From Candidatus Moraniibacteriota bacterium (GTDB lineage Bacteria; Patescibacteriota; Minisyncoccia; Moranbacterales; UBA1568), in contig JAHFOO010000003.1 in assembly GCA_023261645.1 (NCBI GenBank), positions 31,951 through 95,950 on the forward strand: a stretch of DNA of 64,000 nt, in the 5' to 3' direction. Below, piece after piece: positions 11,050-59,339 of this stretch. The stretch's first letter is position 1. Every line of letters begins with the position of its first letter. Below the pieces are notes generated by a model that made no database searches, was not told the DNA's origin, and saw only the letters and a program-made list of their open reading frames with translations. Both the position numbers and the translations under genes were made by a program.

Positions 11050-11053
11050 AGTT

Positions 11054-36809: not shown

Positions 36810-38294
36810 CTATTCAACAAAAACTTTTTCCTTTGATTCATGATCGACCCTGATCCAGTATGCACCCGCCGCACCAAACATCGCCAAGGCCGCCGCCACT
36901 ACGAAAACATGATCATATGCAGCAACCTGTGCTTTCAAAATGATCAAATCAATCCCTGTCTTGATCACATTGGGATCCAAAGATCTGATAACGCTATTTT
37001 GAGCGATTTCTGTCACCTTGCTGTTTACGGCGTTTTGTAGAAATGTTCCAAATGCCGCAATACCGAAGGCGCCCGCGATATTACGTGCTAAAGCCAGAAC
37101 TGAAGAGGCGCTTCCTATCTCGTTTTGCGGTACAGCTGAAGCGATGATACTTGTCCGCTGAGCCATACCAAATCCCATACCGAACGCCATAATTATCAAA
37201 GGAATGATGATATCGATGGATGTCGAACGAGGATCGAGATAGGAAAACAAATAGAGCCCCACGCCAGCAACGAACGTGCTTGCCATAATAACAACGCGGG
37301 CTGACACTTTCCCTACCAGATTGCCACCGATCGGCGCAGCTAAAAGCAAAGCGAAGGCCATCGGCATAAAAAGATAGCCAGTCTGGGTCGCATCCAAACC
37401 GAGATATGTCTGAGCAAAAACCGGAATCAGAAACATCGATCCCATCATCGTCATAAATACGATAAAATTATTCAACAAAACATTTACAAAAACCGTATTC
37501 TTGAAAAAATTCAAATCAATGATAGCATCCTTATGCTCCTGTTCGATACGGATAAAAATATATCCGAATATGATAGTCACCAAATAAGCAGTCAGACTCG
37601 GAATAGAAAACCATCCCCAGCTCAGCCCCTTATCAAGAACGAGGACAAGTGAACTAAGCGCTATTCCCAAAACGATTGCCCCCCACCAATCAAAGCCGTG
37701 TTCTTTTTCCTTTTTTTTGCTTTCATGAATATAGGTCATAGCCATAAGCAGACCCACGATTCCTACTGGAAGGTTTACCAGAAAGACACTACGCCAACCG
37801 AAATTATCGATGAGCGGACCTCCTATAAGTGGCCCAAATACTGATGCCGCTGCAAAAGACGAAGACCAGATGCCCAAAGCCTGAGCTCTTTCTTTGCCTG
37901 GCTTGAAAGTGATGGCCAAGATTGCCATGGCTGTCGGGTAATCTGCTGATCCGGCAATGGCTTGGATCACTCGAAAGGCGATCATCGAGTTCAGATTCCA
38001 AGACAATCCGGCCAATATCGATCCGAAGATAAACAAAGAAAAACCGACGATATAGATTTTCTTTTGCCCATATATATCGCCAAGCTTTCCCCAAATAGGG
38101 ACAAAGATGGCATTGGCCAGGATATATGCTGTTGCGATCCAGCCAGCAGAAGAAACAGTGATTCCGAAATCACCGATAATTTTTGGGATGGCTAGATTCA
38201 CGATTGTCTGATCAAGACGCCCAAGAAAAGTTCCAACGATCACCGTAAACAATATCATCCAGCGCAAATTTTTTGGATCTTTGAATATTTTCAC
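36810..38294 (-). CDS. MFS transporter, DHA2/EmrB-like drug:H+ antiporter (14 TMS)
   Basis: A 494-aa protein. MFS signature GRLDQTIVNLAIPKI and 14 predicted transmembrane segments. Confidence 0.85.
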   Translation of the reverse strand: MKIFKDPKNLRWMILFTVIVGTFLGRLDQTIVNLAIPKIIGDFGITVSSAGWIATAYILANAIFVPIWGKLGDIYGQKKIYIVGFSLFIFGSILAGLSWNLNSMIAFRVIQAIAGSADYPTAMAILAITFKPGKERAQALGIWSSSFAAASVFGPLIGGPLIDNFGWRSVFLVNLPVGIVGLLMAMTYIHESKKKEKEHGFDWWGAIVLGIALSSLVLVLDKGLSWGWFSIPSLTAYLVTIIFGYIFIRIEQEHKDAIIDLNFFKNTVFVNVLLNNFIVFMTMMGSMFLIPVFAQTYLGLDATQTGYLFMPMAFALLLAAPIGGNLVGKVSARVVIMASTFVAGVGLYLFSYLDPRSTSIDIIIPLIIMAFGMGFGMAQRTSIIASAVPQNEIGSASSVLALARNIAGAFGIAAFGTFLQNAVNSKVTEIAQNSVIRSLDPNVIKTGIDLIILKAQVAAYDHVFVVAAALAMFGAAGAYWIRVDHESKEKVFVE

Positions 38295-38311
38295 AGAACC
38301 TGTTCCTTTTG

Positions 38312-38962
38312 TTAATTCGTATAAATGGTCACTTTTGCAGACATACCGTTCTTTAGTTCGGGATACTGCTTCACATCAAAACGGATTTTCACATCAAACT
38401 GGCGCACCTCCCGCTGATCAGAAATATTGAATACCACTCCAGATTGGCGCGAGGTCGAACTAACTTCCTCAACGATCCCGGAATATTTTTTTGAACCGAA
38501 AGCATCAACCGTAAATACCGCACTTTGCCCAATATGTATATCGCTTAAACCACTGTTCTCATCAATATGTGCTACCACGCGAAGTTGTGCTGGATTGATA
38601 ACCGTCACTATCGACTCACCAACACCGACTGTCTTGCCCACATTGTTCTGAGCGCTTATGACTAGACCAACATCTTTGGTCTTCAAAATCTGATCCGAAA
38701 CCTGCGCGACACTTGCATTGGATGAAACCAGATCACCCTCTTTGACAAATATTTTCTGAATAACTCCACCTTGTTCTGACGCAATTGTAATGCTTGGTGC
38801 TTCAATATCTGCTTTGTCGGTAACAATTTGATTTTTCGTGATTGCAAAGAAAAACAATCCCACTACCGCAATAACCGCAAGCAACACAAATCCTAGCAAC
38901 GCAGTGCTTCGCGCCGAACTTCTTTTCGAGACTTCTTGTGGCACGGACAGTTCTTGTTCCAT
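38312..38962 (-). CDS. HlyD-family secretion adaptor (short, lipoyl + beta-barrel)
   Basis: Transmembrane helix, a biotin-lipoyl-like segment (GGVIQKIFVKEGDLVSSNASVAQV) and HlyD_3-like beta strands. Confidence 0.6.
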   Translation of the reverse strand: MEQELSVPQEVSKRSSARSTALLGFVLLAVIAVVGLFFFAITKNQIVTDKADIEAPSITIASEQGGVIQKIFVKEGDLVSSNASVAQVSDQILKTKDVGLVISAQNNVGKTVGVGESIVTVINPAQLRVVAHIDENSGLSDIHIGQSAVFTVDAFGSKKYSGIVEEVSSTSRQSGVVFNISDQREVRQFDVKIRFDVKQYPELKNGMSAKVTIYTN

Positions 38963-38987
38963 ATGATTGATCTTGAAAAAATAATAA

Positions 38988-40043
38988 TTACTTCGCGATA
39001 TATTCTCCTTCAGAAAGCCCGCTAACGATCTCTACCATCCCGTCGACGCCGGTGATTCCGGTGATTATCTCTTTTTCCTGTCCTGTACCATTCTCTGAAA
39101 CAAGTACAAGTTGCTTGCCATCTCGACTGATAATCGACGTGGAAGGAACCCTGACGACATTTTCCTTTTTGCTCGTCTTAAACAAGATATTCACGGTCAT
39201 TCCTGATTTGATACGATCGTCATTTCCTGAAAATACGCATGTCACCTTATACGTAGGCACTCCATTTTTCGTCGTTTCACCAGGATCAATCGCCACTACC
39301 TGAGCCGAAAATATAGCTGAGTTGCCATAGGCATCAAACGTCACATCGGCCGTATCACCAACCTTTATTTTCGTAACATCCTGCTCAGAAACAAAAGACT
39401 GGATCTCAAAAATATCCTTGCCGGTAATAAACGTAGCCACCGGTACTCCAGGCGCCACCACATCTCCAACTTCAACGTTTTGTTTGGCAACAATCCCATC
39501 AAATGGCGCTCGAATGATTGTTTTTTGGAGCTGTGCCAGTGCATTTCTCAAACCAGCCTGAACACCAAGCAACGTCGCCTCTTGTACCACAACGCTTTTT
39601 TCCGTCACAGTCACCTGAGCTTTCTGTACTTTCTTGGCATTCGAGCTCAAGCCTTTGAGTTTCAACTTTTCCATTTTCACAGATGCATTAAGCTCATCGA
39701 GTAACAGTCGAGCGCTGGAAACGCTCGCTAGAACCTGGTCATATTGTGCTTGTACATCTGCATTTTCTGATTGAGCAATCATGGCACCGGCCTTCACAGA
39801 GTCTCCCGCTTTTGTGAAAAGTTTCGTTATGGTTGCCGGGAAAGCACTTCCAAAACCTAAATCAGCTTGCTTTTGAGATCTCACTGTACCAGAGAGGGAG
39901 ATTCCCTCGACAACGTCTCCCCGAGAAACCTGGATCATTCCAACACTCGGATGACCGGAATAGTTCAAATATATGAACGCTATCGCCAAAGCACCAATTG
40001 AGATAATAGCCATAAGCAATCTGTTCGCTATTTTCTTATTCAT
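38988..40043 (-). CDS. HlyD/EmrA-family membrane fusion protein
   Basis: Transmembrane helix, a coiled coil, lipoyl and beta-barrel domains. Lies in an operon with the MFS pump. Confidence 0.7.
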   Translation of the reverse strand: MNKKIANRLLMAIISIGALAIAFIYLNYSGHPSVGMIQVSRGDVVEGISLSGTVRSQKQADLGFGSAFPATITKLFTKAGDSVKAGAMIAQSENADVQAQYDQVLASVSSARLLLDELNASVKMEKLKLKGLSSNAKKVQKAQVTVTEKSVVVQEATLLGVQAGLRNALAQLQKTIIRAPFDGIVAKQNVEVGDVVAPGVPVATFITGKDIFEIQSFVSEQDVTKIKVGDTADVTFDAYGNSAIFSAQVVAIDPGETTKNGVPTYKVTCVFSGNDDRIKSGMTVNILFKTSKKENVVRVPSTSIISRDGKQLVLVSENGTGQEKEIITGITGVDGMVEIVSGLSEGEYIAK

Positions 40044-40066
40044 AGAATATATTCTCTTAAAATAAA

Positions 40067-40489
40067 TTACCTGGTGATATTCGTTACTTTTTCTAAAATG
40101 GCTGTCAACTGCTTCTGTTCATCGATTGTCAGCCTCCTTAAATTCTTTCGCAGTGTTTCGGCCGCATTCTGCTTATATATTTCCAAATACTCCTCACCTT
40201 TCTTCGTAATCACGATACGTACCGTTCTGCGATCTTTCTCATCTGCTTGCCTCTCTACCAGCCGTGCCCTAACAATCGTGTTAACGAGTGAAGTTGCTGA
40301 GGGCGGAGTAATTCCCAATAAACCGGCAATCTCTCTCATAAATGGTTTTTTCTTCTTCACATATGCGAGTGTCACCATATGCAGATAAGAACACGCTTTC
40401 TCGCTCTTTTGCTCCCGTTGCTCGTGCAAGAGTTTGTTGGTCTCAAAAATAAGTCGTATGATACGATCAATAGAATTTTCCATATTCAT
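40067..40489 (-). CDS. MarR-family transcriptional regulator
   Basis: A 140-aa protein with winged helix MREIAGLLGITPPSATSLVNTIVRARLVERQADEKDRRTVRIVITKKG. Confidence 0.8.
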   Translation of the reverse strand: MNMENSIDRIIRLIFETNKLLHEQREQKSEKACSYLHMVTLAYVKKKKPFMREIAGLLGITPPSATSLVNTIVRARLVERQADEKDRRTVRIVITKKGEEYLEIYKQNAAETLRKNLRRLTIDEQKQLTAILEKVTNITR

Positions 40490-40812
40490 TAGAATAAAAA
40501 ATTATTAGAAGCTCTAATATACCAATCTTCTCTTTTTTTGTCAATATTCCATCAAGAACCAAGGCTCAAATCCTGCCAGAATAACAAAACAAGGCTTGTT
40601 ACAGACTTTTTTTATTAGCTCTCCCTAGTAGATAAACTTAGAACTTTTGATTGGGGAAATATTAGAAAGGTAATGGAAGAAATGGAGAAAATTTTGATAT
40701 AAAAAACGCCATCCAATAACCAGGATGGCTCGGTTGGGCACTAATTCCTGACCCCTTTTCTGCTCCTAAAAATATGCGGTGACTCCAATATCGAAAGGGG
40801 TATCAAAATCAG

Positions 40813-41397
40813 TTATTGAAGATAAGCTTCTTTCAATTTGTAGGCTATGTCGTGAAGTTCTTCATGCCGTTCTTTCCCGATGACGTTTTTGTCCACGTCT
40901 TCAAAGCCTTTGTCCAGTTCTTTTAATTTGCTTTCCGAAAGTGTTTTTTCCGTCATCGGGAAAAGCACTTTATTTTCACGATCTATATGCTGGTCGAGAA
41001 GTTTGATATACGCCTTTGTGTTCTCACCGAAAGCGGAAACATCGTCGCTTTCAATGGCATCGGCCATATTTTTCACGAATCCTCTGCCGATAGTGTGTTC
41101 TTCGATAAAACCATCAACGAGAGCGATTTCTTCCGGTATATTGTTTTCCCTTACGGCTGGAAAATACAAAGCCTCTTCTTTTCCATGGTGACACTTGTCC
41201 GCGAATTCCCGGATAAATGTGATGGCGAGTTGCATATGTTCTTTATTGAGAGGCTTTCCAGATTCAAGTTGCTCGCATACTTTTTCCAGAACACGAAGCA
41301 CCATTTTGATCAATCCGTGTTCTCTTTCCATATCTTTAATGGGATCTGGAAAATCGAATTCGACAGGATTCATAGAATTTATTTGACCGTATAACAA
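40813..41397 (-). CDS. Hemerythrin-like metal-binding (HHE cation-binding) domain protein
   Basis: Repeated H/E-containing helices (EHGLIKMVL, FADKCHHGKEEALYFP, EEHTIGR, HIDRENKVLFP) typical of hemerythrin domains. Confidence 0.65.
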   Translation of the reverse strand: MLYGQINSMNPVEFDFPDPIKDMEREHGLIKMVLRVLEKVCEQLESGKPLNKEHMQLAITFIREFADKCHHGKEEALYFPAVRENNIPEEIALVDGFIEEHTIGRGFVKNMADAIESDDVSAFGENTKAYIKLLDQHIDRENKVLFPMTEKTLSESKLKELDKGFEDVDKNVIGKERHEELHDIAYKLKEAYLQ

Positions 41398-41486
41398 TTA
41401 ACAATACTCATTATAGCACAAAAAAACTCCCCCGACTCCACAACAAGATCAGATGCCCTTACAAAAAGAGTGATTTTCACTTGTTA

Positions 41487-41508
41487 CTCTGGCGGCAGGA
41501 TTCGAACC
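41487..41508. repeat. 22-bp direct repeat (distal copy) identical to the 3' end of tRNA-Asn; putative att site of a degraded integrated islet
   Basis: CTCTGGCGGCAGGATTCGAACC matches 43637..43658 exactly. Those bases are tRNA-Asn T-loop through discriminator on the minus strand. Confidence 0.6.
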
Positions 41509-41729
41509 GCCTCAAAAAGTCCGGAAACACCCCTTCCGATTGGTTTCCATCCTAGCTTACATCTCGGATCCTGCGAAGTAGCCTTTTGTTGACTTCGTGG
41601 CTTAATATTGATATATTGGCTTGATCTCAAAATACCGAGATCGTATAGCAGTTGTTTTACAATCCCATCAACCTTTGAGCCACACAACCTGCCTTTGGGC
41701 AGGCCGATGCTCAACAAAGGAGATTCATC

Positions 41730-43070
41730 ATGGAAACACCAAGCGTTTTGATTCGTGACGCACAAGCAGACGATTTCGAGTGGGTCGCCGAACTCATGCA
41801 TAACGCCCTTGAATCGTACTACGGGGGCGATCACCGCGCACATGCGAGACGTATCTTCGATGCGCATATCGCTGGCGGTCACGATCATATCGGATTTTTC
41901 TCGTTCGAACAGCACATGTCCATCCTTGAGGTGGACGGTGTCCGAGCAGGAATCATCCATGTGGTCGGTAAACGTCAGTCGACGTACAAGATCAGCCCGC
42001 TTATCCTTGCGCCAGAATATCAGAGCAAGGGCGGATTCGGAACGATCCTTCTCGACTATGCGGAAGGCTATGCGCGCAAACACGAGGCACGGCAGCTCTA
42101 CTGCACGGTCGCGGAAAAGAACGTGTCCGCCATGCAGTTCTTTCTTCGGAAAGGATTCATCCGCGCAGGGAGCTCAGACAGTCACTACAAGACCGGCGTC
42201 ACGGAAACGATGCTCTATAAGCCTCTTTACGAGACAAGCCTGATCACATCGCTGGATCAATTGCATGTGTCGGTCTTACCGCTTGATGAAGTGGACTCCG
42301 AAGTGAAAGCTGAAGTGGCACGACTTTTGCTCGAAACGCTGCCAAACTCATTCGAGGGTATCACTCCCGAATGGATTTCGGCGCTTTTCGACGGATACGC
42401 GAGAAGGAATAGCGCCGACATCAATGCCAAGTACAAGCTGATTTTTGTCGCTTTCGACAGCACTGGGCAAGTAATCGGCGTGGCGGGAGCGACTCCCAAG
42501 AAAGGGAGTCCGATAAAAATCATGCCCTTCATCGCGAAAAGTAACATCGCGTTCGAAGCACTTCTGATCGACATTCCACATCAGCTGGTTCTGTACGGCC
42601 ACAAACTGTACGTCCACATCAACCCGACCGCCGATGAGGTGGTCTCGCTCCAGCGTCTCGGATGGAGGCTTGACTCGGCCTTGCCAAACGCTTACCGTCA
42701 GAACATCGTTACCCAGCAATGGAGTCTCAACATTGGAGAAACACTCATGCGAACCATGCGAATCAAACAACGGTTTTTCGATCTCATCAAGTCTGGAAAG
42801 AAGCCGCTCGAAGTCCGTGTCGGTTACGATTCGATCAAGCGGATCAGAGCCGGCGAGCAGGTCAATCTCGAGACTCACACATCGAGACTCACCGTCAGGA
42901 TCGCCGCCGTCCGGAACTACGGTAGTTTCGAAGCGATGCTCAAGAAGGAGTCCTTCGGGAAGATTGCGCCGGACGTTTCGTCGGAAGCAGAACTCCTTGA
43001 CCTGCTCAAGCAAATCTATCCGCCAAACAAGGAGGCGCTCGGGGTCATAGTGTTTGAGCTCACAAAGTAG
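41730..43070 (+). CDS. Tandem GNAT acetyltransferase - ASCH domain fusion protein
   Basis: N-terminal GNAT motif A (ISPLILAPEYQSKGGFGTILLDYAEGYARK). A second GNAT-like domain lies mid-protein. The C-terminal 105 aa form an ASCH-type fold (MRIKQRFFDLIKSGKKPLEVRVGYDSIKRIRAGEQVNLE...). The gene is much more GC-rich (about 54%) than its neighbours. Confidence 0.6.
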   Translation: METPSVLIRDAQADDFEWVAELMHNALESYYGGDHRAHARRIFDAHIAGGHDHIGFFSFEQHMSILEVDGVRAGIIHVVGKRQSTYKISPLILAPEYQSKGGFGTILLDYAEGYARKHEARQLYCTVAEKNVSAMQFFLRKGFIRAGSSDSHYKTGVTETMLYKPLYETSLITSLDQLHVSVLPLDEVDSEVKAEVARLLLETLPNSFEGITPEWISALFDGYARRNSADINAKYKLIFVAFDSTGQVIGVAGATPKKGSPIKIMPFIAKSNIAFEALLIDIPHQLVLYGHKLYVHINPTADEVVSLQRLGWRLDSALPNAYRQNIVTQQWSLNIGETLMRTMRIKQRFFDLIKSGKKPLEVRVGYDSIKRIRAGEQVNLETHTSRLTVRIAAVRNYGSFEAMLKKESFGKIAPDVSSEAELLDLLKQIYPPNKEALGVIVFELTK

Positions 43071-43083
43071 CCACAAACCAAAA

Positions 43084-43119
43084 GCCCGGACACATAATAT
43101 GGTCCGGGCCTCTTTTTTT
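43084..43119. terminator. Rho-independent terminator
   Basis: GCCCGGAC...GTCCGGGC 8-bp stem followed by CTCTTTTTTT. A-rich on the other side, so bidirectional. Confidence 0.55.
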
Positions 43120-43459
43120 ATCTTTGAAGTTCGATTCGTATCCCGACTACCCCATACTTTTGCTGCTCTTCCTTCGGATAGAATCGGCTGATTTCTTCAA
43201 ACAAAGCTTCCTTGGAATCTCCGCCAAAATATTCCGGCGGAAAATCCGAGAAGAGATTTTCGAATGAATCATACCGATACAATGCCTTTACTTTTGTCTT
43301 TACTTTTTCCCTAAGATTGTCATTCTGTGAAAACTCGATTTCGTCACCAATATTGATCAATTGACGTTTTTCATCAAAAAGTCGAGATTCGATTATTTTC
43401 TTCCCATTTGCTATTTTCTCAAACGGCTCCTTGGCAAGTTTCATCTGATGAACATTCAT
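43118..43459 (-). CDS. ASCH-domain protein
   Basis: MKLAKEPFEKIANGKKIIESRLFDEKRQLINIGDEIEF fits the ASCH (ASC-1 homology, PUA-like) N-terminal consensus. It is paralogous in fold to the C-terminus of 41730..43070. Confidence 0.55.
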   Translation of the reverse strand: MNVHQMKLAKEPFEKIANGKKIIESRLFDEKRQLINIGDEIEFSQNDNLREKVKTKVKALYRYDSFENLFSDFPPEYFGGDSKEALFEEISRFYPKEEQQKYGVVGIRIELQR

Positions 43460-43674
43460 ACAAAGACATTTATAGGTTAATAATTGAGTCTCTCAGGTTC
43501 AAATCCGGTTGCTGGCCTGGAATGTAAAACCTATATAAGAGGAAAGAAAAATCGCCACTTTCCGTGACGATTCTCTCTTTCTCTCTGGACTTTCCCCACG
43601 GATAGGAACCGGTCACTTGAGAAATACTGATGTTGGCTCTGGCGGCAGGATTCGAACCTGCGACCAAGTGATTA

Positions 43675-44222
43675 CATTTCCCTCTTTGTTTCCAAAAAGA
43701 ATGGACTATATCATCTCCATCGCACGAAGCATTAGGAGTGAGGGGCTTCCCCTTCTATTCATCAGGGTACTCTCTCGCGAGATAGTCTCTGAACCTTCCT
43801 ACTCCTCTAGTAGGCTTGGCTGCTGATTACCATAATCGTGCTGAACAATCGTAGGCTTCCAGCAATTCACCTCATTCTTCACTTCTCGATTTCTCGAGAA
43901 GGCTGCGTAATTTGGAATGTTCTTCTCTGTGACAATTCGCACATATCAGAATACACTTATCTATTTCCTTCTGAACCCTTTCCCAGCTTCGGGTGAGTCC
44001 ATCTTGAGAGATCCCGAAATCCTTTCCGCCGAGAGCGTGATGGAATTCGAGTGCATCTTGACACTGCTTGTAACCACACAAAGAACATTCTCCGCCTTTA
44101 TACATAATCGCTTTTTGACGAATAGCCTTTCGGCGTTTCGCAACAGCGCGTTTTATGTACTCTCGGCGATCAGCATAGGATCTTTTTTCTGGCATATAGT
44201 GTCATATACCATAAATGTTTTC
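43675..44222 (-). ncRNA. Group I self-splicing intron (IC3-like) inserted between anticodon positions 35/36 of tRNA-Asn
   Basis: Minus-strand sequence after the HNH ORF stop contains the four group I core elements. P-like is AATTGCTGGAAG. Q-like is AATCAGCAGCC. R is the exact GTTCAGAGACTA. S-like is GATATAGTCC. The intron starts with G after an exon U and ends in G. Confidence 0.7.
43872..44195 (-). CDS. HNH homing endonuclease encoded within the group I intron
   Basis: CSLCGYKQCQDALEFHHALGGKD...ICANCHREEH is the classic HNH motif with two Cys pairs and HH. The ORF begins 27 nt into the intron and ends immediately before the P element. Confidence 0.8.
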   Translation of the reverse strand: MPEKRSYADRREYIKRAVAKRRKAIRQKAIMYKGGECSLCGYKQCQDALEFHHALGGKDFGISQDGLTRSWERVQKEIDKCILICANCHREEHSKLRSLLEKSRSEE

Positions 44223-44361
44223 ACAGTCACCTGCTCTACCGCTGAGCTACGCCAGAACGTGTTGCCTCTTATAGGCAATGTAACTATTCTAAAGCAAAAA
44301 AAAGAAAAAGGCAACTATACTTGATAATTGCCTCAAAAAAACATTTTATACCGCTGGTATA

Positions 44362-44868
44362 TCAACCGAAAGTGGATTCCAGTCGAGGATGGGAATAATA
44401 AGACTCTATTTTACGTATAGGTCTCCCTAAATCATCTCTTTCGAACAGCAGATGCAATTTTGGACTACCCAAAGCAGCATTATTGCTTACGACGCTATCG
44501 TCGCCGACAAAAAATCCTATATGCCGGTGACCGGGTCCACGTCTACGGAGCTTTTTCCCCCAGACAACAATACATCCGGGACGCGGAGAAGGTATTTTCT
44601 TCTAACCGGACATTTCAAGGTCACGGATTGTTTCATTTACTGTCGTATGCACCCTGCCTTTCGTCAGTCTGAAAAGTGTCAATATCGAAGACACAAAGTA
44701 AGCACAAGCGAGGTCTCCATTCTCGATGACGTCCCTTGGTCCGATGACCGTTTGCACATACAGATGTCTGTATTGATTCGAGCCGACGCTTCCCTGAATC
44801 ATCGCAAAATACGTCTTGAAAAAGGCGAGAGGGTATCCCTCTTCTTTATGAATTGTTTTCATCGTCAT
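44362..44868 (-). pseudogene. CHAP/NlpC-P60-like papain-fold peptidase gene interrupted by an in-frame TAG
   Basis: N-terminal segment MTMKTIHKEEGYPLAFF...GDLACAYFVSSIL...EMSG ends at the TAG at 44602-44604. The same frame continues KKIPSPRPGCIVVWGKK...GPGHRHIGFFVGDDSVVSNNAAL... to the TGA at 44362-44364, giving a Cys...His arrangement. RBS AGGAGAAA precedes the ATG at 44868. Confidence 0.45.
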
Positions 44869-45083
44869 TTTCTCCTGGTAAGGTACTATTGTAAGAACTG
44901 AAAAAGAAAATTTGCCACAGATACTGTCACTCGAAATGAGTGTCTGTACCCATAACGTCTTTCTTCTCTCAAACTCTCGGGAAAGCTTGAGTAAGAAAAA
45001 TATAGCAAATGAAGAGGGTTTTAGCAACACCGAAAGGAGAATTATCAAAAACCCCTCCAAGGAGGAGGGGTTCTGAAAAATCT

Positions 45084-46502
45084 CTAATAGTCTCTAAGTT
45101 TCCGAATATCCGCGTGCTCACGGATCTTTTCGAGAGCCTTGGCTTCAATCTGGCGGATACGTTCACGCGTCACACCGAATTCCTGCCCCACCTCTTCGAG
45201 AGTATGTGTCACGCCGTCTTCCAATCCGAAACGGATACGGAGAATTTTCTGTTCTCGCGGAGTGAGTTCGTCCAAAATATCAGAAATATGCGATTTCAAA
45301 AGTTTCCGTGAAGCAGATTGATTTGGCATCACTGTTTCGGTATCTTCGATGAAGTCCCCGAGCACACTATCGTCTTCATTATCACCGACGGATGTTTCGA
45401 GAGAAACAGTTTCTTGTGAAATTTTCTGGATGTGGCGAATCTTCTCGACTTCGATGTTCATCTCCGCGGCGATTTCCTCTGCCAATGGTTCGCGTCCGAG
45501 TTCCTGTACCAAACGACGGGTCACCTGGGCGTATTTGTTGATCGTTTCCACCATATGCACCGGGATACGGATCGTACGCGATTGATCAGCAAGTGCTCGC
45601 GTGATAGCCTGACGGATCCACCACGTAGCATAGGTAGAAAACTTATAGCCTTTGCGATAATCAAATTTTTCGACAGCTCGGAACAGTCCTATATTGCCTT
45701 CTTGGATGAGGTCAAGAAGCGAGAGATTGTGCGATCGACCGACATACTTCTTGGCAATCGACACGACCAATCGCAAGTTGGCTTCCGTCAGACGCTGTTT
45801 CGCAGGGATATCACCTTTTTCGATCAGTTTGGCGAGACGCACTTCTTCTTCTCCGTTGAGCAGAGCCACGCGTCCGATTTCTTTCAGATACATCTGCACC
45901 AGATCGGACGTATTCTCTTCACCAAGATCCATCATCTTGTCTTTAGCTTTCGGCGCCGCTTTACTTTTTTCTTTACCCTTGTCCTTTCCTTTGCCTTTCT
46001 CTTTTTCTTTCTTACCGAAATTCGCCCCTTCCTTCTCTATATCGAGTTTCAACATTTCTTCCGAACCGATGACACGGATTCCAGATGTCTCGAGTTTTTC
46101 ATACAGACTTTCCAGATGATCCAAATCCTGTTCCACATCGGGCAAGATATGAATGATCTCATCTTCCGTCACGAAACCGCGTTGCTTCCCGCGCGCGAGC
46201 AATTCCGTCACAGCATCTTGCTGTTCTTCGATGCGTTCCCTGCTCTGAGAAGCTCTTTTCTTCACCGGCTTCACATATTTTTTATGAGCGACTTTCGATT
46301 TTTTGGAAACGATCTTTGTTTTTTTTGATGCCGTTTTTTTCGTCTGCTTTTTCTTCACGACAACCTGTTTCTTTTTCTTGCCGATCGGATGAATCTTTTT
46401 CTGCACTTTTTTATGAAGCACCTTTTTGGCAGACTTCTTCATAGGTTTCTTTCCCTTATTCAAGGGTTTTTTTGCACCTTTCTTCATAATCTTTTTTGTC
46501 AT
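45084..46502 (-). CDS. rpoD: RNA polymerase primary sigma factor RpoD (sigma-70) with lysine-rich N-terminal extension
   Basis: Regions 2-4 are conserved ([60 protein letters not shown]). The N-terminal 90 aa or so are about 45% Lys ([21 protein letters not shown]...). Confidence 0.9.
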
Positions 46503-46590
46503 AAGATCTTATTTATTAGAAAATAGCGAAACCCCCTCTTGTGAGTCTCGGATGATTATCATTTATGAATACCGTATCCTAGCAACATTC

Positions 46591-48486
46591 TTAGGATTTG
46601 TCCAAAGAAATTTCCGTGAATTGAGCCAAAAGCTTCTTCTCCAATTCATTATCATTTTTCTCTCGTGCTTCTCTCAATGCTCGTTCCAGTGCGATGAGTT
46701 TCTCACGTTTGGTAATCTCCCTTTTCAAATCTTCGAAATAACTCTTGGCTATTTCGAGCATCTTCCCTGTCCGGTCTTCTTCCGGCACATCGATGAAATC
46801 CGGTAATTCCAAAATATGAAATATCAGTCTCGTCGCCTCATTCTTCAGCACAGAATCCTCTATGAGGGTCAGTGGATCCCTTATTCCTGCCTGAACCAGA
46901 AAGAAGTAGAGGGGGTGTTTTTCGAGAAATGATTTGGTCTCATCATCGAGAAGAAGATTGAAAAAGGTTTCACGGACGACGCTATCCGCATACATAAATC
47001 CTACCAATTCCTCCCGTAACAATTCAGAACGTTTTCCAAATGGAATCGTACCCTTGAGAGGCTCTCCTCTTCCTGTCTCAAATGGAGTATACCTCTCCCG
47101 GCGTTCCCGCGACTGGATGACTGTATTTACTACACCCAGCACGAGTTTTTCTTCCATCTGTATCGCTTCCGAGAGTTCTTTGACCCAAAAAGCCCGTTCG
47201 ATGGGATTCTTCACAAACACCAGAAGCTCGGCGTATTCTTCCGCTATTTTCCGTTTCCCATCAGGCGTATTCTGATCATATTGTTTCAAACTGGTTTGGA
47301 GGAAATACCGTAGTGCCGGAATCGAAGCCTTGACCGCCTCTCTTAGTCCTTCCGGGTTCTCTTTGCCCATATCCGAAGCGTCTTTGCCGGATGTAAGGGC
47401 GACGACTGAGACAATCATCTCTTTCGAGAGTGCCGATTCCGCGCTTTTCCTCGCCGCCTTTTGTCCTGCTCCATCCATATCGAAAAACAATTTCACTTCA
47501 CTACCATAGCGTTTCATCGTCGTCAACTGCTCATCAGTGAGAGCGGTACCGGAAACGGCCACTGTATTTTTGATACCTGCTTGATGCATCGCGATGACGT
47601 CCATATTCCCCTCCACAATCACCGTTATGCCTTCCTGCTTCATCGCCATTTTTGCCTGAAACAAGCCATACAAAGCTCGGCTTTTGTGGTAGACTGGAGT
47701 CTCGGGCGTATTGATATATTTCGCCTGTGTCTCATCGCCACCCGGTGCCACCCGTGCCGAATACCCGATCACCCGACCGAGGATATCAAAGATAGGAAAC
47801 ATAATGCGATCACGGAAACGATCATAGTGAGTAGAATCTTGAGTCTTGAATCTTGAATCTTGGTTTCCTTCGTTGGATTTTTTTATAACGAGTCCGGCGC
47901 TCTCCATTTCTTGCACAGAAAAACCTCTACTCGTGAGAAATTCCAACAAATGTCGCCAACCATCCGGCGCATAGCCGAGACGAAATGTTGCGATGCTCTC
48001 CTGTGAGAGACCGCGTTCGGAAAGATATGTCCCTATTTTTTTCTGTCCGACTTCTCCTGCCAATTGTTTTTCGAAAAATTTTGTAGCCAGCTCGAGAAGT
48101 TCATATACACGGTCTTTGGTTTCTTTGTTTTTCTCTTCTCCTTTGTACTGTGGCAATTCCACTCCGGCACGTTCTGCCAGCATCTTGAGAACTTCACGAA
48201 ATTCGAGGCCCTCCATTTCCATCACGAACGCGAATACGTCTCCGCCCTTGCCACAACCGAAGCAGTGCCACATATTCTTCTCTTCGTTCACCATAAAAGA
48301 TGGTGTCCGTTCCTGATGGAATGGGCAACACGCTTTGTAATGCACGCCGGACTTGTCCAGATGAACATACGATCCGATAAGGTCGACGATGTTCAGTCGT
48401 GCTTTGATTTCGTCAATGGTTCCGTCTGACATAGTATTTTTTATCTCACTGACTGAATAATAGCTCTCAATAGGGCTAAAAAGCAA
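46591..48486 (-). CDS. dnaG: DNA primase DnaG
   Basis: Zinc ribbon CPFHQERTPSFMVNEEKNMWHCFGCGKGGD and a TOPRIM domain. Lies immediately upstream of rpoD, the classic macromolecular-synthesis operon order. Confidence 0.9.
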   Translation of the reverse strand: MLFSPIESYYSVSEIKNTMSDGTIDEIKARLNIVDLIGSYVHLDKSGVHYKACCPFHQERTPSFMVNEEKNMWHCFGCGKGGDVFAFVMEMEGLEFREVLKMLAERAGVELPQYKGEEKNKETKDRVYELLELATKFFEKQLAGEVGQKKIGTYLSERGLSQESIATFRLGYAPDGWRHLLEFLTSRGFSVQEMESAGLVIKKSNEGNQDSRFKTQDSTHYDRFRDRIMFPIFDILGRVIGYSARVAPGGDETQAKYINTPETPVYHKSRALYGLFQAKMAMKQEGITVIVEGNMDVIAMHQAGIKNTVAVSGTALTDEQLTTMKRYGSEVKLFFDMDGAGQKAARKSAESALSKEMIVSVVALTSGKDASDMGKENPEGLREAVKASIPALRYFLQTSLKQYDQNTPDGKRKIAEEYAELLVFVKNPIERAFWVKELSEAIQMEEKLVLGVVNTVIQSRERRERYTPFETGRGEPLKGTIPFGKRSELLREELVGFMYADSVVRETFFNLLLDDETKSFLEKHPLYFFLVQAGIRDPLTLIEDSVLKNEATRLIFHILELPDFIDVPEEDRTGKMLEIAKSYFEDLKREITKREKLIALERALREAREKNDNELEKKLLAQFTEISLDKS

Positions 48487-48543
48487 ATCCTCACGAAGCG
48501 ACTTGCTCCGCGAGGAAGATGAAAATATTTATCCTTCCGTTCC

Positions 48544-49398
48544 CTACTTCTGTCCAACAATCACAAGGATATCAGTACCGGGATTTACTTCTCCATCCGG
48601 GAGTGTCGCTACGATTTTTCCGCCAATAGTTTCTGCAAGCTTGGTAACAAAATCGGCATTTTTTCCCGAGAGATCAATAACCTGTGTCTCCGTATAATCA
48701 CTTTTTACTGCTTTCTCTTTCTTTTCCACTGTTACTGCGGGAAATTTCGCTATAATACTGTCTTCGAGCGTATTAGTGGCACCAATTTTCATCGTCCCAT
48801 TATACAAGGCCAGCCTCAATGAAATAGGAGTCTCTGCCGGTGTAGTCGTTTGTTCGCCGACTACCGCCTCTTTTGGTACGTCTACGGCAGACGATACATC
48901 CGTGACAGGAGCAGTTGCCTTGATGTCAGTCACATTGATTGTCGTAACATCAATAATTTTCCCAGTTGAAGGTCTGTACAGAATGGCTTTCTTCGCATTC
49001 GTATAAAGGAGCACCTTATCGCCATTCTCGGCCCTATCGAAAAAAGATGATTTTTCAAGTTTTGATTTATCATTAATCGTAGCCAGTGTCGGTGTCTCAT
49101 CGGGTAATTCCATCAATTTTCCGATACTATTTTTTACCTGTGCCAATTCATCTTCTGCCGTCTTGGTGACAGGAACATTTTTATACTGAAAATAAAAATA
49201 TACGGCTACTCCGGAGGCAACTACAAATAGAATAAAAAGAGTGAGGAAAGACGAGATGAGAAGGGTGTTTTTTTTCTGATTACCACTTAATGGTACTGAT
49301 TTGACAGTCGCATCTCTCAACCCTTCTCCCTTCTTTTTCGAAAAAAAAGACATATGTTTATTTATTTTAAATTTATCCACCTTCAGTATAACAAACAA
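48544..49398 (-). CDS. Membrane-anchored LytR_C (LytR/CpsA/Psr C-terminal) domain protein
   Basis: Transmembrane helix, then a C-terminal ISLRLALYNGTMKIGATNTLEDSIIAKFPAVTV...DILVIVGQK matching the LytR_C domain pattern. The likely start is the internal ATG giving MSFFSKKKG (49353). Confidence 0.5.
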   Translation of the reverse strand: MFVILKVDKFKINKHMSFFSKKKGEGLRDATVKSVPLSGNQKKNTLLISSFLTLFILFVVASGVAVYFYFQYKNVPVTKTAEDELAQVKNSIGKLMELPDETPTLATINDKSKLEKSSFFDRAENGDKVLLYTNAKKAILYRPSTGKIIDVTTINVTDIKATAPVTDVSSAVDVPKEAVVGEQTTTPAETPISLRLALYNGTMKIGATNTLEDSIIAKFPAVTVEKKEKAVKSDYTETQVIDLSGKNADFVTKLAETIGGKIVATLPDGEVNPGTDILVIVGQK

Positions 49399-49422
49399 AC
49401 TCCCTTCTTTGAAGAGTCTTCA

Positions 49423-50208
49423 CTACTCCGAAACACCTGTTTCTGGTGAAGTGACAACATGAGGTGTTTCAACTGTAGTCTGCCCAGCAACTGGCAGGAC
49501 AGTTTCGTTTGTTTGTACATCTCCGCTTACCGTCCCATCCGTAGGCTGTACCACATTTGTCGAATCCTCCGGCACTACTTGGGTTGATGTATCGTCAGGA
49601 ATGACTGGCGTATTCACATCTGGAGTAACCTGGACCTCCGATGGGCGGATAATGCTTTCTTCTGACGTAAAATCACCAAAAAACTGAGCAAGAGTGTCGA
49701 GTGTCGTACGAAGAAATCCAATCAATGTACGTTTGACGGTATCTTTCACATAATCGGCTTGGGGGAGGTTTTCTTCCATCACGCCAAGAGACTTGCTCAT
49801 CTGTGCTAAATTACTACCAAAGTCATTTACGGCTTGTTCAAAGGTATTCTTTGGTGGTTGATTCTCTTTTTTAGGGGCAACTTGCACAGCAGGAACAATG
49901 ACGATTTTTTTCATTGTGATTCTTTTCTCAGCCGGATCACCATTGACCCAGAGGGTATACTGACCATCTGGAATATTCCACTGCGACAAATCATCCGAGA
50001 AAGAAAATACGCCATCTTTACACGGTGTGCCAGAAGAATAGACTGATTCCTGGTCACTGTTCACGTGAGTGAGTGTGAATTTCACATCCATCGAACAAAC
50101 ACCGGACAATGTCAAGACATTTTCGGTCGATTGCAAAGTGTATTTCTCTTTCGCAAAAATCGGTATCGGAATCGAAAGAAGAAACAAGGCAAAAATGATT
50201 TTTTTCAT
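49423..50208 (-). CDS. Secreted hypothetical protein
   Basis: Signal peptide MKKIIFALFLLSIPIPIFA and a T/P/V-rich C-terminus. No recognised domain. Confidence 0.45.
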   Translation of the reverse strand: MKKIIFALFLLSIPIPIFAKEKYTLQSTENVLTLSGVCSMDVKFTLTHVNSDQESVYSSGTPCKDGVFSFSDDLSQWNIPDGQYTLWVNGDPAEKRITMKKIVIVPAVQVAPKKENQPPKNTFEQAVNDFGSNLAQMSKSLGVMEENLPQADYVKDTVKRTLIGFLRTTLDTLAQFFGDFTSEESIIRPSEVQVTPDVNTPVIPDDTSTQVVPEDSTNVVQPTDGTVSGDVQTNETVLPVAGQTTVETPHVVTSPETGVSE

Positions 50209-50325
50209 GAGATTTCTATATCTTTTTTCTTCATTGTAGCATAAAAACCACATCTTATCCAAAGAAAACCTTTAAATAGAGAGAGAAAGGTGCTATTATA
50301 ACAATGCTCAAAATCTCCATTATTT

Positions 50326-51315
50326 ATGTATTCCATCAAAAAATATCTCTTCACTCTTTTCATACTTATTATCGGAATTGCTGTTACTGTCGCCTTTTTC
50401 AAGTTGGAAGAATCGAAGGAAAATAAAAAAAATAGCGGTTTCAAAAGCTGTCAGAATCAATACAACCTCATCAACCCAGAGATTGATTGTGAAACGATTG
50501 ATGATGACATTACCAAGACTCAAGGAATTAATAATACGATTGAAGATTTTGTTGCTCTTGAAAAAAAGACAGGCAAAGCAGACGAAATATCTGTCTTTTA
50601 TCGGAACCTCACTACCCGTCAGTGGTTCGGTATCGACGAGAACAGGCAATTCTACCCCGCCAGTGTTGCGAAACTCCCTACTGCTATGATGTTCTATAAG
50701 GTTGCCGAGGTCGATAAGGAGATTCTCGAAACACCAAACACCATCACCGAGGAAGATACCAAATTAAACGATGGCCAACACTATAAACCTCCGGAAAAGC
50801 TGGGGGCCGGAAAAGACTATTCAACGAGAGAACTTCTTCGAAGAATTCTGACATATTCTGACAATATCCCGCTTCGGATACTTATGGAATCGGCCCTTCC
50901 CTTCAGCGCTCCTGTTTTCTTGGATCTCGGTGTGACATTCCCGGCCAAGGAAGGTGATACTGTCGCACAATGGAACACAACAACAAAAACTATTTCTAAC
51001 CTTTTTCGCGTCCTTTACAATGCATCGTATATTCGTCCAGAATATTCGAATGTTATCCTTGAACAGCTCGCCGATTCAAGTTTCAAAAACGGTCTTGTTG
51101 CCGGTGTTCCTGCCGAGACAAAAGTTGCACACAAATATGGTGAGGCTTCGGAAACCGATGAAAAGACGGGTGAGGTTTATATCGTACTCAATGATTGCGG
51201 GATTGTTTACAAAGAAAGCAGCCCGTATATCATTTGTGTGATGACTCAGGGAAAAAGTTTTGATGACCTTGAAACAATCATCAAAACAATCTCTGAAAAA
51301 GTATATTCTTTCTGA
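50326..51315 (+). CDS. Serine hydrolase of the class A beta-lactamase/PBP fold
   Basis: N-terminal transmembrane helix. SxxK motif (PASVAKLP), SDN motif (YSDN) and a KxG-like motif (HKYGEAS). Confidence 0.55.
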   Translation: MYSIKKYLFTLFILIIGIAVTVAFFKLEESKENKKNSGFKSCQNQYNLINPEIDCETIDDDITKTQGINNTIEDFVALEKKTGKADEISVFYRNLTTRQWFGIDENRQFYPASVAKLPTAMMFYKVAEVDKEILETPNTITEEDTKLNDGQHYKPPEKLGAGKDYSTRELLRRILTYSDNIPLRILMESALPFSAPVFLDLGVTFPAKEGDTVAQWNTTTKTISNLFRVLYNASYIRPEYSNVILEQLADSSFKNGLVAGVPAETKVAHKYGEASETDEKTGEVYIVLNDCGIVYKESSPYIICVMTQGKSFDDLETIIKTISEKVYSF

Positions 51316-51334
51316 CCGATCTTCCAACAAAAAA

Positions 51335-51368
51335 CCCTGAGAGTGCTTTGTTCTCAGGACTTTTTATT
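51335..51368. terminator. Rho-independent terminator (bidirectional)
   Basis: CCTGAGAG...CTCAGG hairpin followed by ACTTTTTATTT. Sits between convergent genes. Confidence 0.55.
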
Positions 51369-51379
51369 TAGATTCAGGT

Positions 51380-54300: not shown

Positions 54301-54631
54301 GAGAAGCGAAAGCAGTCGTATCGCCGAGATTGGTCTGAAAAATACCATCAGCCGTGGTGATGCTTTTCGATTCTTTCCATACGGCGTCGTTATTGGAACC
54401 GGCTGTACAGGGTGTCACCGGACTGGCGGTCGTGTACACACAAAACAAGAAGTTATAACTGGCATTGGCGACGTTGGTACCATCGGTATTCGTAACTTTT
54501 CCTTGGAAGTTGATCTGTTTGTTGATACCCGTAGTCGCCTCTGCTGTTTGAACTACATAAAAAAAGAGAAGCAGGCTGGCCAAGGCCACCGCTTTACTTC
54601 TGAAGAAATTCTTTGTATTTTTGGTTTTCAC
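51380..54631 (-). CDS. Large (1083 aa) secreted Thr/Gly-rich repeat protein with an internally duplicated ~330-aa module
   Basis: Signal peptide and long G/T/A-rich beta-helix-like tracts. Two copies of a module end in GSTTPD[YL]LALD[VA]KS..GDPA...YYN....FRCYQ..TWT[ND]CIGAGG. Confidence 0.6.
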   Translation of the reverse strand: MKTKNTKNFFRSKAVALASLLLFFYVVQTAEATTGINKQINFQGKVTNTDGTNVANASYNFLFCVYTTASPVTPCTAGSNNDAVWKESKSITTADGIFQTNLGDTTAFASLIDFNTDNIYLGINFNSNGQMTPLVHFTTAPYALNADKVHGLSVTDTTGTLTIPNGKTIQFSDAFTTTGAFPLTLTATASTIATLPSGTITLADLGTSQTLTNKIIGSTGLTFTGATTDITTGTGEDLTLVANGAGIISLNDATTITGTTLINSTGTATTTIGNATGTFALTSSGGLNVTTGGALTGVASLDTIATSATALTFAGTGTIASTTTGLTLDSGSNTLTIASSDTALTASGIATMTLAPNVSITNTSGNLTLQPAGSGTIATVQIGAGGAGSTTPDYLALDVKSTTGDPAGGFEGALYYNTFDNVFRCYQGATWTNCIGAGGSSTLQTSYDTASGNTILTTTGRNIAYTLGEVATPTSFTVENQDTAGVSAERIFNSIASGTLTNGMLIEQTGAGTMTSGIQITETAGSIATGINIGNNVGTGIAIGTGVTTGISIASGGMTITAGALAINNATGITSNQATMVVNAGGTVDIQDILNADSVTTDTGGVSIANNQSYTGAGIVTLSSATASALTINSGTTGALSIGDDASNETINIATGAAIKTVTFGSSTTSSTTTIKSGTGGINLVPEDTAEGNVQIGTGGAGSTTPDLLALDAKSDAGDPATAIEGTMYYNQNSNKFRCYQNTTWTDCIGAGGGGPIGSDTQVAFNDAGTESGDAGFTFNKTTQTLGINGTDGEVLLNGITNEPSAPATGKMLLYSKSVAGRMMPKWIGPSGLDSIVQPMVAMNKVAWWNPPGNATTAPGVLGMAAMTVVSNGGTTMTTRSVATTRMFTRLKRAGVVSTAVAGTLGSLRQGSMQYTIGDGAGLGGFTYVSRFGSSDAATVTGAREFVGLSSATAAPTNVEPSTLTNSIGLCSGAADTNMKLCYGGSAPQTPIDLGVNFPANTLSVDMYELILYAPTNVNNVVNYRVTRLNTGDVATGTITAATAGTQLPASTTFLAARFWRTNNLTALAVGIDVASLYVETDY

Positions 54632-54649
54632 ACGCTTCTTTTTTTGTTT

Positions 54650-55135: not shown

Positions 55136-55185
55136 GACCTGCTACTCCTTATCAGAAGTAGTGTTGTGCTTCTTTGTTCCTGCTA

Positions 55186-55212
55186 AAACAAAAAAACCGG
55201 GCATTCACCCGG
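55186..55212 (-). terminator. Rho-independent terminator for the minus-strand gene 55306..55908
   Basis: ACCGGG-CATTCA-CCCGGT hairpin. On the minus strand it is followed by TTTTTTTGTTTT. Confidence 0.5.
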
Positions 55213-55305
55213 TTTCTTGGCTGTATCGGATATATCCGATACTCAATCACCTGTCTATTATAGCAGGAAAATGCCCTCTTGTCAACGCGTACCAAATAAG
55301 GATCT

Positions 55306-56842: not shown

Positions 56843-56865
56843 GAAATTTAAATTTGGTTTGGTTT

Positions 56866-57951: not shown

Positions 57952-58169
57952 AATACCATATTCCTCTTTTTGTACCTAGAATTCACCTTTCATCAAGAGT
58001 CTCTTATCTCTAGAAATAATGGGCATTGAACCCCGGGGCAAGCCCTAGACACAATCCCTCCGCGGCAAGCCGCGGAGTATTGACCCAATTTTACTAGCAC
58101 TCGCTCGGTAATGAAAACCCTCCTTCCATCGAAGGAAAGAGGTCTATCTTTTTTAACGAGAACGGAAAA

Positions 58170-59285: not shown

Positions 59286-59339
59286 TGTATCACTTTTTTC
59301 ACCGGAAGTTAATCCTTTGTCAAGACTGAAAAGAAAAAA

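Follow-up and report, generated by a model that had tools for sequence, protein, structure and literature searches.

A compact integrase-less islet behind an intron-containing tRNA-Asn gene of Candidatus Moraniibacteriota is a candidate non-autonomous integrative element

We analyzed a 64-kb window (the whole stretch of DNA considered here, 64,000 nucleotides (nt)) that homologues and related loci place in Candidatus Moraniibacteriota, within the Patescibacteria or candidate phyla radiation (CPR), and describe in it a compact two-gene islet that lies directly behind a tRNA-Asn gene and is bounded by a direct repeat of the tRNA 3′ end (Table 1). The neighborhood comprises DnaG, RpoD, a 152-amino acid (aa) protein of unknown function, tRNA-Asn, the islet, a hemerythrin-domain gene, MarR, two HlyD-type genes and a major facilitator superfamily transporter. 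The islet is a 2,150-bp unit with two genes and non-coding stretches of only 221, 47 and 177 nt. The boundary repeat, CTCTGGCGGCAGGATTCGAACC, is present in exactly two copies on the same strand with 0 mismatches, and no third copy exists in the 64-kb window at ≤3 mismatches, in agreement with the perfect 22-bp repeat that an initial annotation of this DNA had reported at the same two positions. The window is part of a contig assembled from a metagenome. Dinucleotide-preserving shuffles of the window gave no 22-mer match (0/100), the whole region is found again in an independent Logan assembly (L081), where every protein is 100% identical, and the islet architecture recurs in samples from other studies; on these grounds we rejected a repeat produced by chance or by misassembly, an explanation of negligible probability.

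The tRNA gene that borders the islet is split by an intron. Default ARAGORN detected no tRNA in the 64-kb window, and ARAGORN with introns allowed identified tRNA-Asn(GUU) on the minus strand, with a 3′ exon that ends in an encoded CCA (43634–43636) and a spliced product that adopts a canonical 75-nt fold. The 548-nt intron lies between U35 and U36 (CUGU/UAA; junction actgt/taatc) and belongs to group I (Rfam RF00028, 72.1 bits, gathering score 50). Inside it, on the minus strand, an open reading frame (ORF) of putative HNH type encodes 107 aa (43872–44195); its match to Pfam HNH is weak (E = 0.0034, 17.9 bits, below the 21.4 cut-off), a CxxC...HH...CxxCH pattern is visible, and orthologues occur in L104, L203, L194, L201, L140 and other contigs. 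An intron occupies the same site (35/36) in ~23/120 tRNA-Asn loci. Group I introns at 35/36 of Patescibacteria genes for tRNA-Asn and tRNA-Asp, which standard tRNA finders miss, have been published, with introns of >500 nt and HNH homing-endonuclease genes in a few of them (Nakagawa et al. 2026, PMC13011429). The window intron shares with this class the tRNA, the CUGU/UAA insertion site, escape from default finders and a length of >500 nt, and it has an ORF with the weak HNH match given above. The published class concerns the target gene and not the islet, and the parts of that article available to us do not mention elements integrated at this tRNA (PMC13011429).

From the discriminator the repeat runs through the 3′ strands of the acceptor and the T-stem and through the T-loop, and it takes in 2 nt of the T-stem 5′ strand, in agreement with the T-loop-to-discriminator segment of an intron-containing tRNA-Asn proposed from the sequence at first reading. 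The distal copy reaches from the discriminator into the T-arm only and has no tRNA 5′ part, with identity to the tRNA ending at GG/TTCGAATCC, and it has no tRNA function. We also considered an insertion sequence or a miniature inverted-repeat transposable element and rejected both: there is no transposase, the ends are direct and not inverted, and the 22-bp repeat is tRNA sequence and not an arbitrary target.

An islet with the same ends and arm lengths is present in three further Moraniibacteriota-like contigs. In L216 (JGI, 10.5 kb) both 22-mers are perfect and the same as those of the window (22/22), identity reaches 81.7% over 41484–43720, RpoD and DnaG lie further on, and the tRNA-Asn intron measures 226 nt and has no HNH ORF. 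In L083 (Logan) homology to the window starts exactly at 41487, and the left copy CTCCGGCGGCAGGATTCGAgCC and the tRNA copy CTCCGGCGGCAGGATTCGAACC (21/22) both carry the local tRNA variant, a C at position 4 (CTCCGG). The third contig, L087, is 2,168 nt long and runs from inside the left repeat into tRNA-Asn. The distal flanks are unrelated to one another: the window has hemerythrin on this side, L083 has DKNYY and a 126-aa gene, and L216 has an apparent insertion sequence transposase C-terminus. The window and L216 have identical left 22-mers beside an arm of only 79% identity (0.79^22 ~0.006). Contigs of ~2.1–2.5 kb carrying the islet protein were examined as possible circular forms, a notion we rejected; L087 has no terminal overlap and breaks at the repeat or the tRNA.

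Both arms of the islet are constrained. The left arm has exactly the same length in all four islets and the right arm varies by 2 nt at most (Table 1). The right arm supplies the tRNA with its encoded CCA and contains a conserved hairpin, a degenerate inverted T-arm-like stretch (43495–43516) and a strong intrinsic terminator located by a terminator scan (43575–43547); CCA, hairpin region and terminator are conserved among the four islets, and the arm is nearly invariant beside the tRNA and has a fold z of −3.2. Pairwise identity across the four islets is 76–88% for the left arm and 76–84% for the right arm, and in the 446-aa gene it is 55–72% at codon position 3 and 92–95% at positions 1 and 2. 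Because the arms exceed codon third positions in conservation, we conclude that they are under purifying selection. The initial annotation had suggested a degraded or decayed element, and this part of its description is not supported: four genomes ~18% apart in DNA retain one integrase-less 2.15-kb layout, in which arm lengths are fixed, the arms are better conserved than codon position 3 and the left repeat, which has no function in a tRNA, is still perfect. The islet is a conserved, constrained and compact unit, not debris.

Table 1. Coordinates of features at the islet locus of the window and of structured units behind tRNA-Asn genes in other contigs
Feature	Sequence	Position	Strand	Basis or remark
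Third, degenerate, inverted tRNA-Asn 3′-end remnant (AGGCTCAAATCCTGCC..AGAAT)	Window	40561–40615	+	Inverted repeats I10, I15
Former native trailer of tRNA-Asn with partly deleted intrinsic terminator	Window	41440–41486	−	L213 homology, 94% identity
Distal direct repeat (attR-like), 22-nt remnant of the original tRNA-Asn 3′ end	Window	41487–41508	−	Exact copy
Left arm, non-coding	Window	41509–41588		Exactly 80 nt in 4/4 islets
Promoter of GNAT-ASCH gene	Window	41589–41617	+	TTGACT, 17 nt, TATATT, with TG; 10/12 consensus match
Structured 5′ leader	Window	41618–41729	+	Two covarying hairpins and invariant helix CCUUUGAGC / GCUCAA..AGG
Cargo gene 1, 446-aa tandem GNAT–GNAT–ASCH protein	Window	41730–43070	+	Pfam Acetyltransf_1 4.5e-10, ASCH 8e-10
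Hairpin between convergent cargo genes	Window	43075–43118		Inverted repeat I19 (AAACCAAAAGCCCGGAC / GTCCGGGCCTCTTTTTT)
Cargo gene 2, 113-aa stand-alone ASCH, convergent with gene 1	Window	43118–43459	−	Pfam ASCH 1.6e-09; PDB 1s04, 2z0t
Right arm, new tRNA trailer from the islet	Window	43460–43636	−	175–177 nt in four islets
Proximal direct repeat (attL-like), within functional tRNA-Asn 3′ exon	Window	43637–43658	−	Exact repeat, ARAGORN exon
tRNA-Asn(GUU) gene	Window	43634–44256	−	5′ exon 44256–44223, intron 44222–43675, 3′ exon 43674–43634; ARAGORN, Rfam RF00028
Structured unit	L093	7202–7518
Structured unit	L125	1385–1671
Structured unit	L091	5092–5226
Structured unit	L108	2027–2160
Structured units	L117	9798–9933, 12035–12113
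Structured units	L158	3365–3489, 6381–6509
Structured unit	L167	1408–1540
Further units	L186/L204	Just downstream of tRNA-Asn
Further units	L102, L116, L096, L147

Cargo gene 1 encodes a protein with a GNAT N-terminus and an ASCH C-terminus in Pfam, and its AlphaFold2 model (pLDDT 84.5) shows two GNAT-like halves followed by ASCH. Foldseek searches with this model returned single and tandem GNATs (2wpw, VipF), and the ASCH part matches the PDB ASCH proteins PF0455 and PH0355. Homologues of gene 1 number >788 and occur in many Parcubacteria lineages, the best 120 of them at 62–93% identity. Gene 2 shares only 19% identity with the C-terminal ASCH domain of gene 1. Both genes are present together in all complete copies of the module, always with the same promoter and leader, and the hairpin between them is probably a bidirectional terminator. 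TTGACTT and the −10 box are kept in 8/8 module copies. The leader, present at the same position in L082–L089, folds across eight copies into 21 pairs by RNAalifold, 7 of them with compensatory changes, and its invariant helix covers part of the Shine-Dalgarno sequence, features that suggest a candidate cis-regulatory RNA; Rfam holds no family for the leader or for the arms.

ASCH proteins include N4-acetylcytidine (ac4C) amidohydrolases (YqfB, PMC6972931) and have been described as tRNA ac4C "erasers" (bioRxiv 10.64898/2026.02.27.708502). The cargo shares with these enzymes and with the tandem GNATs (PDB 2wpw, VipF) an ASCH domain in both proteins and the tandem GNAT fold in gene 1, and the portions of the two ASCH sources available to us do not mention a GNAT–GNAT–ASCH fusion with a separate ASCH partner. 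Acetylated nucleosides or RNA are the probable targets of the cargo, in which GNAT would transfer acetyl groups and ASCH would bind or hydrolyze N4-acetylcytidine-type substrates, and given the recent implication of ASCH in tRNA ac4C removal the pair is a candidate acetyl writer and reader or eraser. A defense system was considered and rejected, with nothing meaningful from PADLOC and only sub-threshold GNAT matches in NCBIfam.

Base composition sets gene 1 apart and points to movement of the cargo between hosts. At 53.1% GC and 64.7% GC at third codon positions (GC3), it is the GC maximum of the entire window and is atypical (z = 3.5 and 5.6) relative to 48 other window ORFs (43.8 ± 2.6% GC, 44.1 ± 3.7% GC3). 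The islet as a whole had been described as GC-rich, which holds for this gene and not for the rest, as the ASCH gene has 38% GC and the arms lie near the window average. Across all hosts examined gene 1 keeps 50–54% GC (GC3 57–66%) while host flanks range from 44% to 64% GC, so this composition is a property of the gene family; it is a sign of transfer, in line with the foreign origin considered by the initial annotation, and not of a GC-rich donor. The partner ASCH gene has 38–45% GC across hosts (L082–L089), and the internal contrast between the two genes is conserved among them. In L082 the module is 93% identical to that of the window in protein and 87% in DNA within a host of 62–66% GC, where gene 1 is GC-poor, and the MurJ of this contig is ≤63% identical to any database protein and 42–51% identical to hits named Moranbacteria; as a comparison of sequences, this is strong evidence for horizontal transfer of the cargo.

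The module also occurs in unrelated contexts without a tRNA (L082, L084, L085/L086, L088 and L217), among them a site between MreB and an aminoacyl-tRNA synthetase in L084 and sites near a serine recombinase, DUF4365 and LOOT RNA in L085/L086. In L085 (679–9749, CP064974.1), in L086 and in an ENA contig carrying P0005, which represent two contexts, a few kb separate the module from a large serine recombinase gene; the one in L085 abuts tRNA-Glu, with DUF4365 and LOOT RNA between it and the module, and no tRNA-Glu repeat bounding the region was found within 17 kb.

For comparison with relatives, tRNA-Asn loci were collected by a DNA-pattern scan with a degenerate 22-mer, and ~108 have at least 200 nt downstream. 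The closest relative found, L104, has RpoD and DnaG proteins 99.2% and 88.5% identical to those of the window (92.6% and 80.3% for L216) and aligns at 84.7% over 43636–48486, a span that includes the tRNA, the intron and the HNH ORF. Homology ends at 43636, one base past the repeat, and is followed in L104 by a terminator and an unrelated gene, with no second copy of the 22-mer. An unoccupied tRNA-Asn in a relative, which the initial annotation had suggested looking for, is thus present in L104. The islet is absent from all other scanned loci (~108), including ~12 with RpoD near tRNA-Asn, and the encoded CCA is missing in L104 and in the other relatives with RpoD near the tRNA, with the exception of islet-bearing L216. 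As the window and L104 are nearest to each other and L216 lies outside, the distribution requires either two gains of the islet or one gain and a loss that ends at the repeat boundary.

The sequence beyond the distal repeat retains the trace of a tRNA trailer. The left repeat of the window continues into TAACAAGTGAAAATCAC..., and the homologous sequence of L213 reads ...GGAG CAACAAGTG AAAATCACTC-TTTTT-GAGGTGATTTT, with an intact hairpin and T-run, of which the window is short by 11–12 nt. This left-flank trailer begins like other non-CCA tRNA-Asn trailers. The displaced fragment keeps a native trailer and the working gene has an element-borne one, the asymmetry expected from integration into a tRNA 3′ end. 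The same asymmetry bears on the possibility that the left 22-mer is the rest of a second, tandem tRNA-Asn and that the module landed between the two copies by illegitimate recombination. Tandem tRNA-Asn genes do exist, 90 nt apart in L092 and L124, but in four genomes the remnant breaks off at one and the same nucleotide and passes directly into conserved islet DNA, and the trailer, CCA and terminator of the intact tRNA are islet-specific while the remnant has the native type. We consider this origin very improbable.

We favor, with a probability of roughly 55%, the reading that 41509–43636 is a small non-autonomous integrative islet in tRNA-Asn(GUU) that is moved by a recombinase encoded elsewhere. 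Insertion would proceed by site-specific recombination at the tRNA 3′ end within a core of ≤22 bp, from T-loop to discriminator. As the sequence stands, the functional tRNA ends in islet-side DNA consisting of the identical 22 nt, the encoded CCA, a new trailer and an intrinsic terminator, and the original 3′ end lies displaced on the far side together with its old trailer and now partly deleted terminator. A recombinase supplied by a helper element or by the chromosome would catalyze insertion and any excision, and the conserved arms and the perfectly kept non-functional repeat would represent cis-acting recombination sites. The geometry of attachment (att) site duplication at a tRNA 3′ end that was first noted for this segment is borne out, and the segment acts as a discrete inserted unit.

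Several observations weigh against this reading. A Pfam scan of 49 window ORFs, drawn from 47 non-overlapping ORFs of at least 150 aa and four smaller ones near the islet, revealed no recombinase, integrase or transposase domain, and no helper element or recombinase with the same att specificity was identified within the 64-kb window. The initial annotation had likewise listed one small ASCH gene and no integrase in the islet; integrase remnants, which it had proposed to search for, were found neither in the islet, where there is no space for one, nor in the scanned window ORFs. The module lies at many loci without a tRNA, and no flanking repeats were found around it in L082, L084, L085, L088 or L089, which argues that att-type recombination is not its sole route of movement. 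The full-architecture protein is absent from IMG/VR, PLSDB plasmids and INPHARED phages, where only isolated GNAT or ASCH domains at ~30% identity appear. No relative joins both original flanks: the downstream gene of L104 is unrelated to the left flank of the window, and an orthology of the L104 trailer with that flank (p ~0.005 relative to shuffles) was rejected as generic because unrelated trailers match equally well. A clean empty site with both flanks was not found, as L213 has neither the islet nor tRNA-Asn and L214 and L215 are too short. L213, the closest contig with hemerythrin (98% identical in aa), shares 40619–41502 with the window at 94% in a different context, where the first 16 nt of the repeat (CTCCGGCGACAGGATT) are joined to Fic/DUF1428 DNA and no tRNA-Asn lies within 13 kb. 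Finally, the islet of the window and that of L216 are 82% identical in DNA and 86% in protein, and RpoD and DnaG are 80% and 74% identical in DNA, a similarity in divergence that vertical inheritance of one old insertion predicts.

Such inheritance is the core of an alternative close to the decayed islet of the initial annotation, in which a larger integrase-bearing element integrated once in the ancestor of the clade, lost its integrase and further genes and was passed on vertically as a 2.15-kb fossil, with the differing distal flanks and the absence from L104 arising through later rearrangements and deletions. The absent integrase and the core-gene-like divergence between the window and L216 agree with a fossil, as does the rearrangement-prone nature of the locus, seen in the remnant at 40561–40615, the L213 junction and an 11.8-kb insertion or deletion relative to L104. 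Decay, however, should not preserve exact arm lengths, constrained arms and a perfect non-functional 22-mer, a loss in L104 would need to end within one base of the repeat boundary, the left copy in L083 shares its variant base with the local tRNA, and the cargo has demonstrably been transferred between hosts of very different GC. We regard the fossil as unlikely.

The left flank indicates that the history of the locus involves more than one insertion, given that L213 carries this flank and 16 nt of the repeat without islet or tRNA. Behind the degenerate inverted remnant at 40561–40615 come a trailer and a terminator of native type, and this trailer has its first 15 bases in common with the L149 tRNA-Asn trailer; the hemerythrin segment is thus bracketed by inverted remnants, this one and the left repeat. 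Several events at tRNA-Asn-derived sequences are part of the locus history.

Tyrosine integrases serve P4-type and similar tRNA-targeting islands and prophages. With P4-type islands the islet shares insertion directly 3′ of a tRNA, a direct repeat of the tRNA 3′ segment, a tRNA end restored by the element, an atypical composition and an occurrence in some relatives but not others, and it differs from them in having no integrase, a size of 2.15 kb, two cargo genes, no phage or conjugation genes, a CPR host and a target tRNA that is itself split by a group I intron. Closer in gene content are the cis-mobilizable elements (CIMEs) or "genomic islets" of Firmicutes families of integrative and conjugative elements (ICEs), which are integrase-less, att-flanked and mobilized in trans. 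The islet has in common with them att-type flanking repeats, the lack of recombination and transfer genes and conserved ends as for cis-acting sites; in contrast, typical CIMEs are much larger, and no ICE or helper of the same att specificity was found in this lineage for the putative mobilization of the islet. Two IMG/VR contigs, L211 (2726–4038) and L212 (2943–4112), contain only the 3′ half of a tRNA-Asn directly beside Phage_integrase (tyrosine) genes, and this half holds a variant of the 22-mer one base off that of the window. The contigs are high-GC, viral and unrelated; their junctions are classical att sites on the tRNA-Asn 3′ end and offer a precedent for the 22-bp core as att. Literature searches returned no work on integron-like sites or integrative elements at Patescibacteria tRNA genes.

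The scanned tRNA-Asn loci revealed a second kind of tRNA-derived sequence, present in many Patescibacteria. At ~25/108 tRNA-Asn loci there is an inverted copy of the T-loop and T-stem, a direct copy of the tRNA 3′ end further downstream, or a combination of the two, and at ~12 loci a 120–170-nt non-coding unit sits just past the trailer and terminator of the tRNA (Table 1). Each unit begins with an inverted tRNA 3′-end copy split by a hairpin (GCTCCGACGG, hairpin, CAGGATTCGAA) and continues with a structured middle, a hairpin with a UGUAA loop, a direct tRNA 3′-end copy and a native-type trailer; units are arranged in tandem in L093, L125 and L091. Ten units yield a consensus whose five helices comprise 41 pairs and in which 90.8% of cells are paired; 19 of the pairs have compensatory changes, compared with 12.9 ± 1.8 in shuffles (0/500 reach this number) and 3–8 in slid controls. 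The covariance model built from it, R1, describes a closing stem of tRNA-Asn acceptor sequence, hairpin 1, a CAGGAUUCGAA/UCCUG helix and two inner hairpins, and recovers members outside the training set in L167, L116, L102, L096 and L147 as well as second copies in L158 and L117. Some units are associated with genes: L167 has the tRNA, a 367-aa gene and then a unit, the units of L117 bracket three genes, one of them an S-adenosylmethionine methyltransferase, and those of L158 bracket a 532-aa gene and DUF817. Rfam contains no family for the units, and no recombinase was found among the cargo of the unit-bracketed loci.

Folded recombination sites are known from the attP hairpins of CTX phage and of integrative mobile elements exploiting Xer (IMEX) and from the attC cassettes of integrons. 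The unit arrays share with these systems the order of direct copy, cargo, inverted copy, loop and direct copy, a regenerated target, accumulation in tandem, and structure instead of sequence as the conserved property; they differ in that no link to IntI or Xer is known, the target is a tRNA 3′ end, and the window islet does not match the unit model. Tentatively, and at a low probability, the units may belong to a Patescibacteria cassette system at the tRNA-Asn 3′ end that ranges from cargo-less elements of ~130 nt to islets of one to three genes, grows by serial insertion, and operates through a folded site mimicking tRNA T-arm and acceptor DNA with a recombinase encoded elsewhere.

If so, the window islet could itself be a gene-carrying member of this wider, undescribed system, each insertion regenerating the tRNA 3′ end and leaving a distal direct copy preceded by an inverted copy, with recombination through a folded (hairpin) site and a host recombinase in the manner of the attP hairpins and attC cassettes above. 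The frequency of tRNA copies behind tRNA-Asn, the units themselves with their tandem arrangement, strong structure and genes enclosed between them, and the recovery of further members by the model speak for this origin; the parts of the islet come in the same order, and a 9–10/11-nt inverted match to the T-loop and T-stem of the repeat lies in its left arm. Against it, the fold of this inverted match is energetically not significant (z = −0.15, −0.94, +0.71) and shows almost no covariation, and R1 has no match in 38000–46000 with filters off, the best hit (8.6 bits, E = 0.76) being the tRNA 5′ exon, so that we rejected the islet as a structured unit and the link between islet and units is topological only. 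Template switching could also have produced the units, or they could form a family of RNA genes, and no recombinase is linked to them. We hold membership of the islet in such a system to be doubtful, and the smaller-scale reading of a non-autonomous islet moved in trans remains the one we prefer.

Two minor observations concern tRNA-Asn-like sequences in other contigs. Downstream of its tRNA-Asn, at +95 and +193 nt, L203 has a tandem pair of short direct copies of the tRNA 3′ end (AAATCCTGTCGCCGGAG), ~98 nt apart, each followed by a terminator and without a structured unit. Copies of the 22-mer outside any detectable tRNA occur at L177 2464, L182 783, L184 8266 and L178 6, those in L177 and L182 being preceded by a repeated "GGTTCGAGGGACCGAGA"-type sequence.

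Almost nothing is known of gene exchange in CPR/Patescibacteria, whose tiny genomes contain few recognizable mobile elements. The islet offers a concrete route of exchange that is compact and integrase-less, with precise tRNA-derived ends, conserved and putatively cis-acting arms and cargo that hosts 20 GC points apart have in common at 87–93% protein identity, and its recombinase, if found, would provide a natural site-specific integration system for organisms that are not yet genetically tractable. The structured units would represent either a new class of recombination site or a new RNA family, and a cassette system, if real, would amount to an integron- or IMEX-like platform for gene capture in minimal-genome organisms.

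The window contains other features of interest. Between DnaG and a LytR_C gene, an 11.8-kb block (48487–60328) is absent from L104, whose alignment jumps from 48486 to 60329; this second variable region contains a beta-lactamase-like gene, a 1083-aa protein of unknown function and WxLIP/Fn3-like surface proteins. A cluster at 9493–13103 encodes HlyD, a FeeM-like N-acyl amino acid synthase, an acyltransferase and a phosphopantetheinyl transferase, with a 2565-aa Kelch-repeat protein nearby at 15516–23213; the FeeM-like synthase cluster and the Kelch-repeat protein are unusual for a reduced CPR genome.

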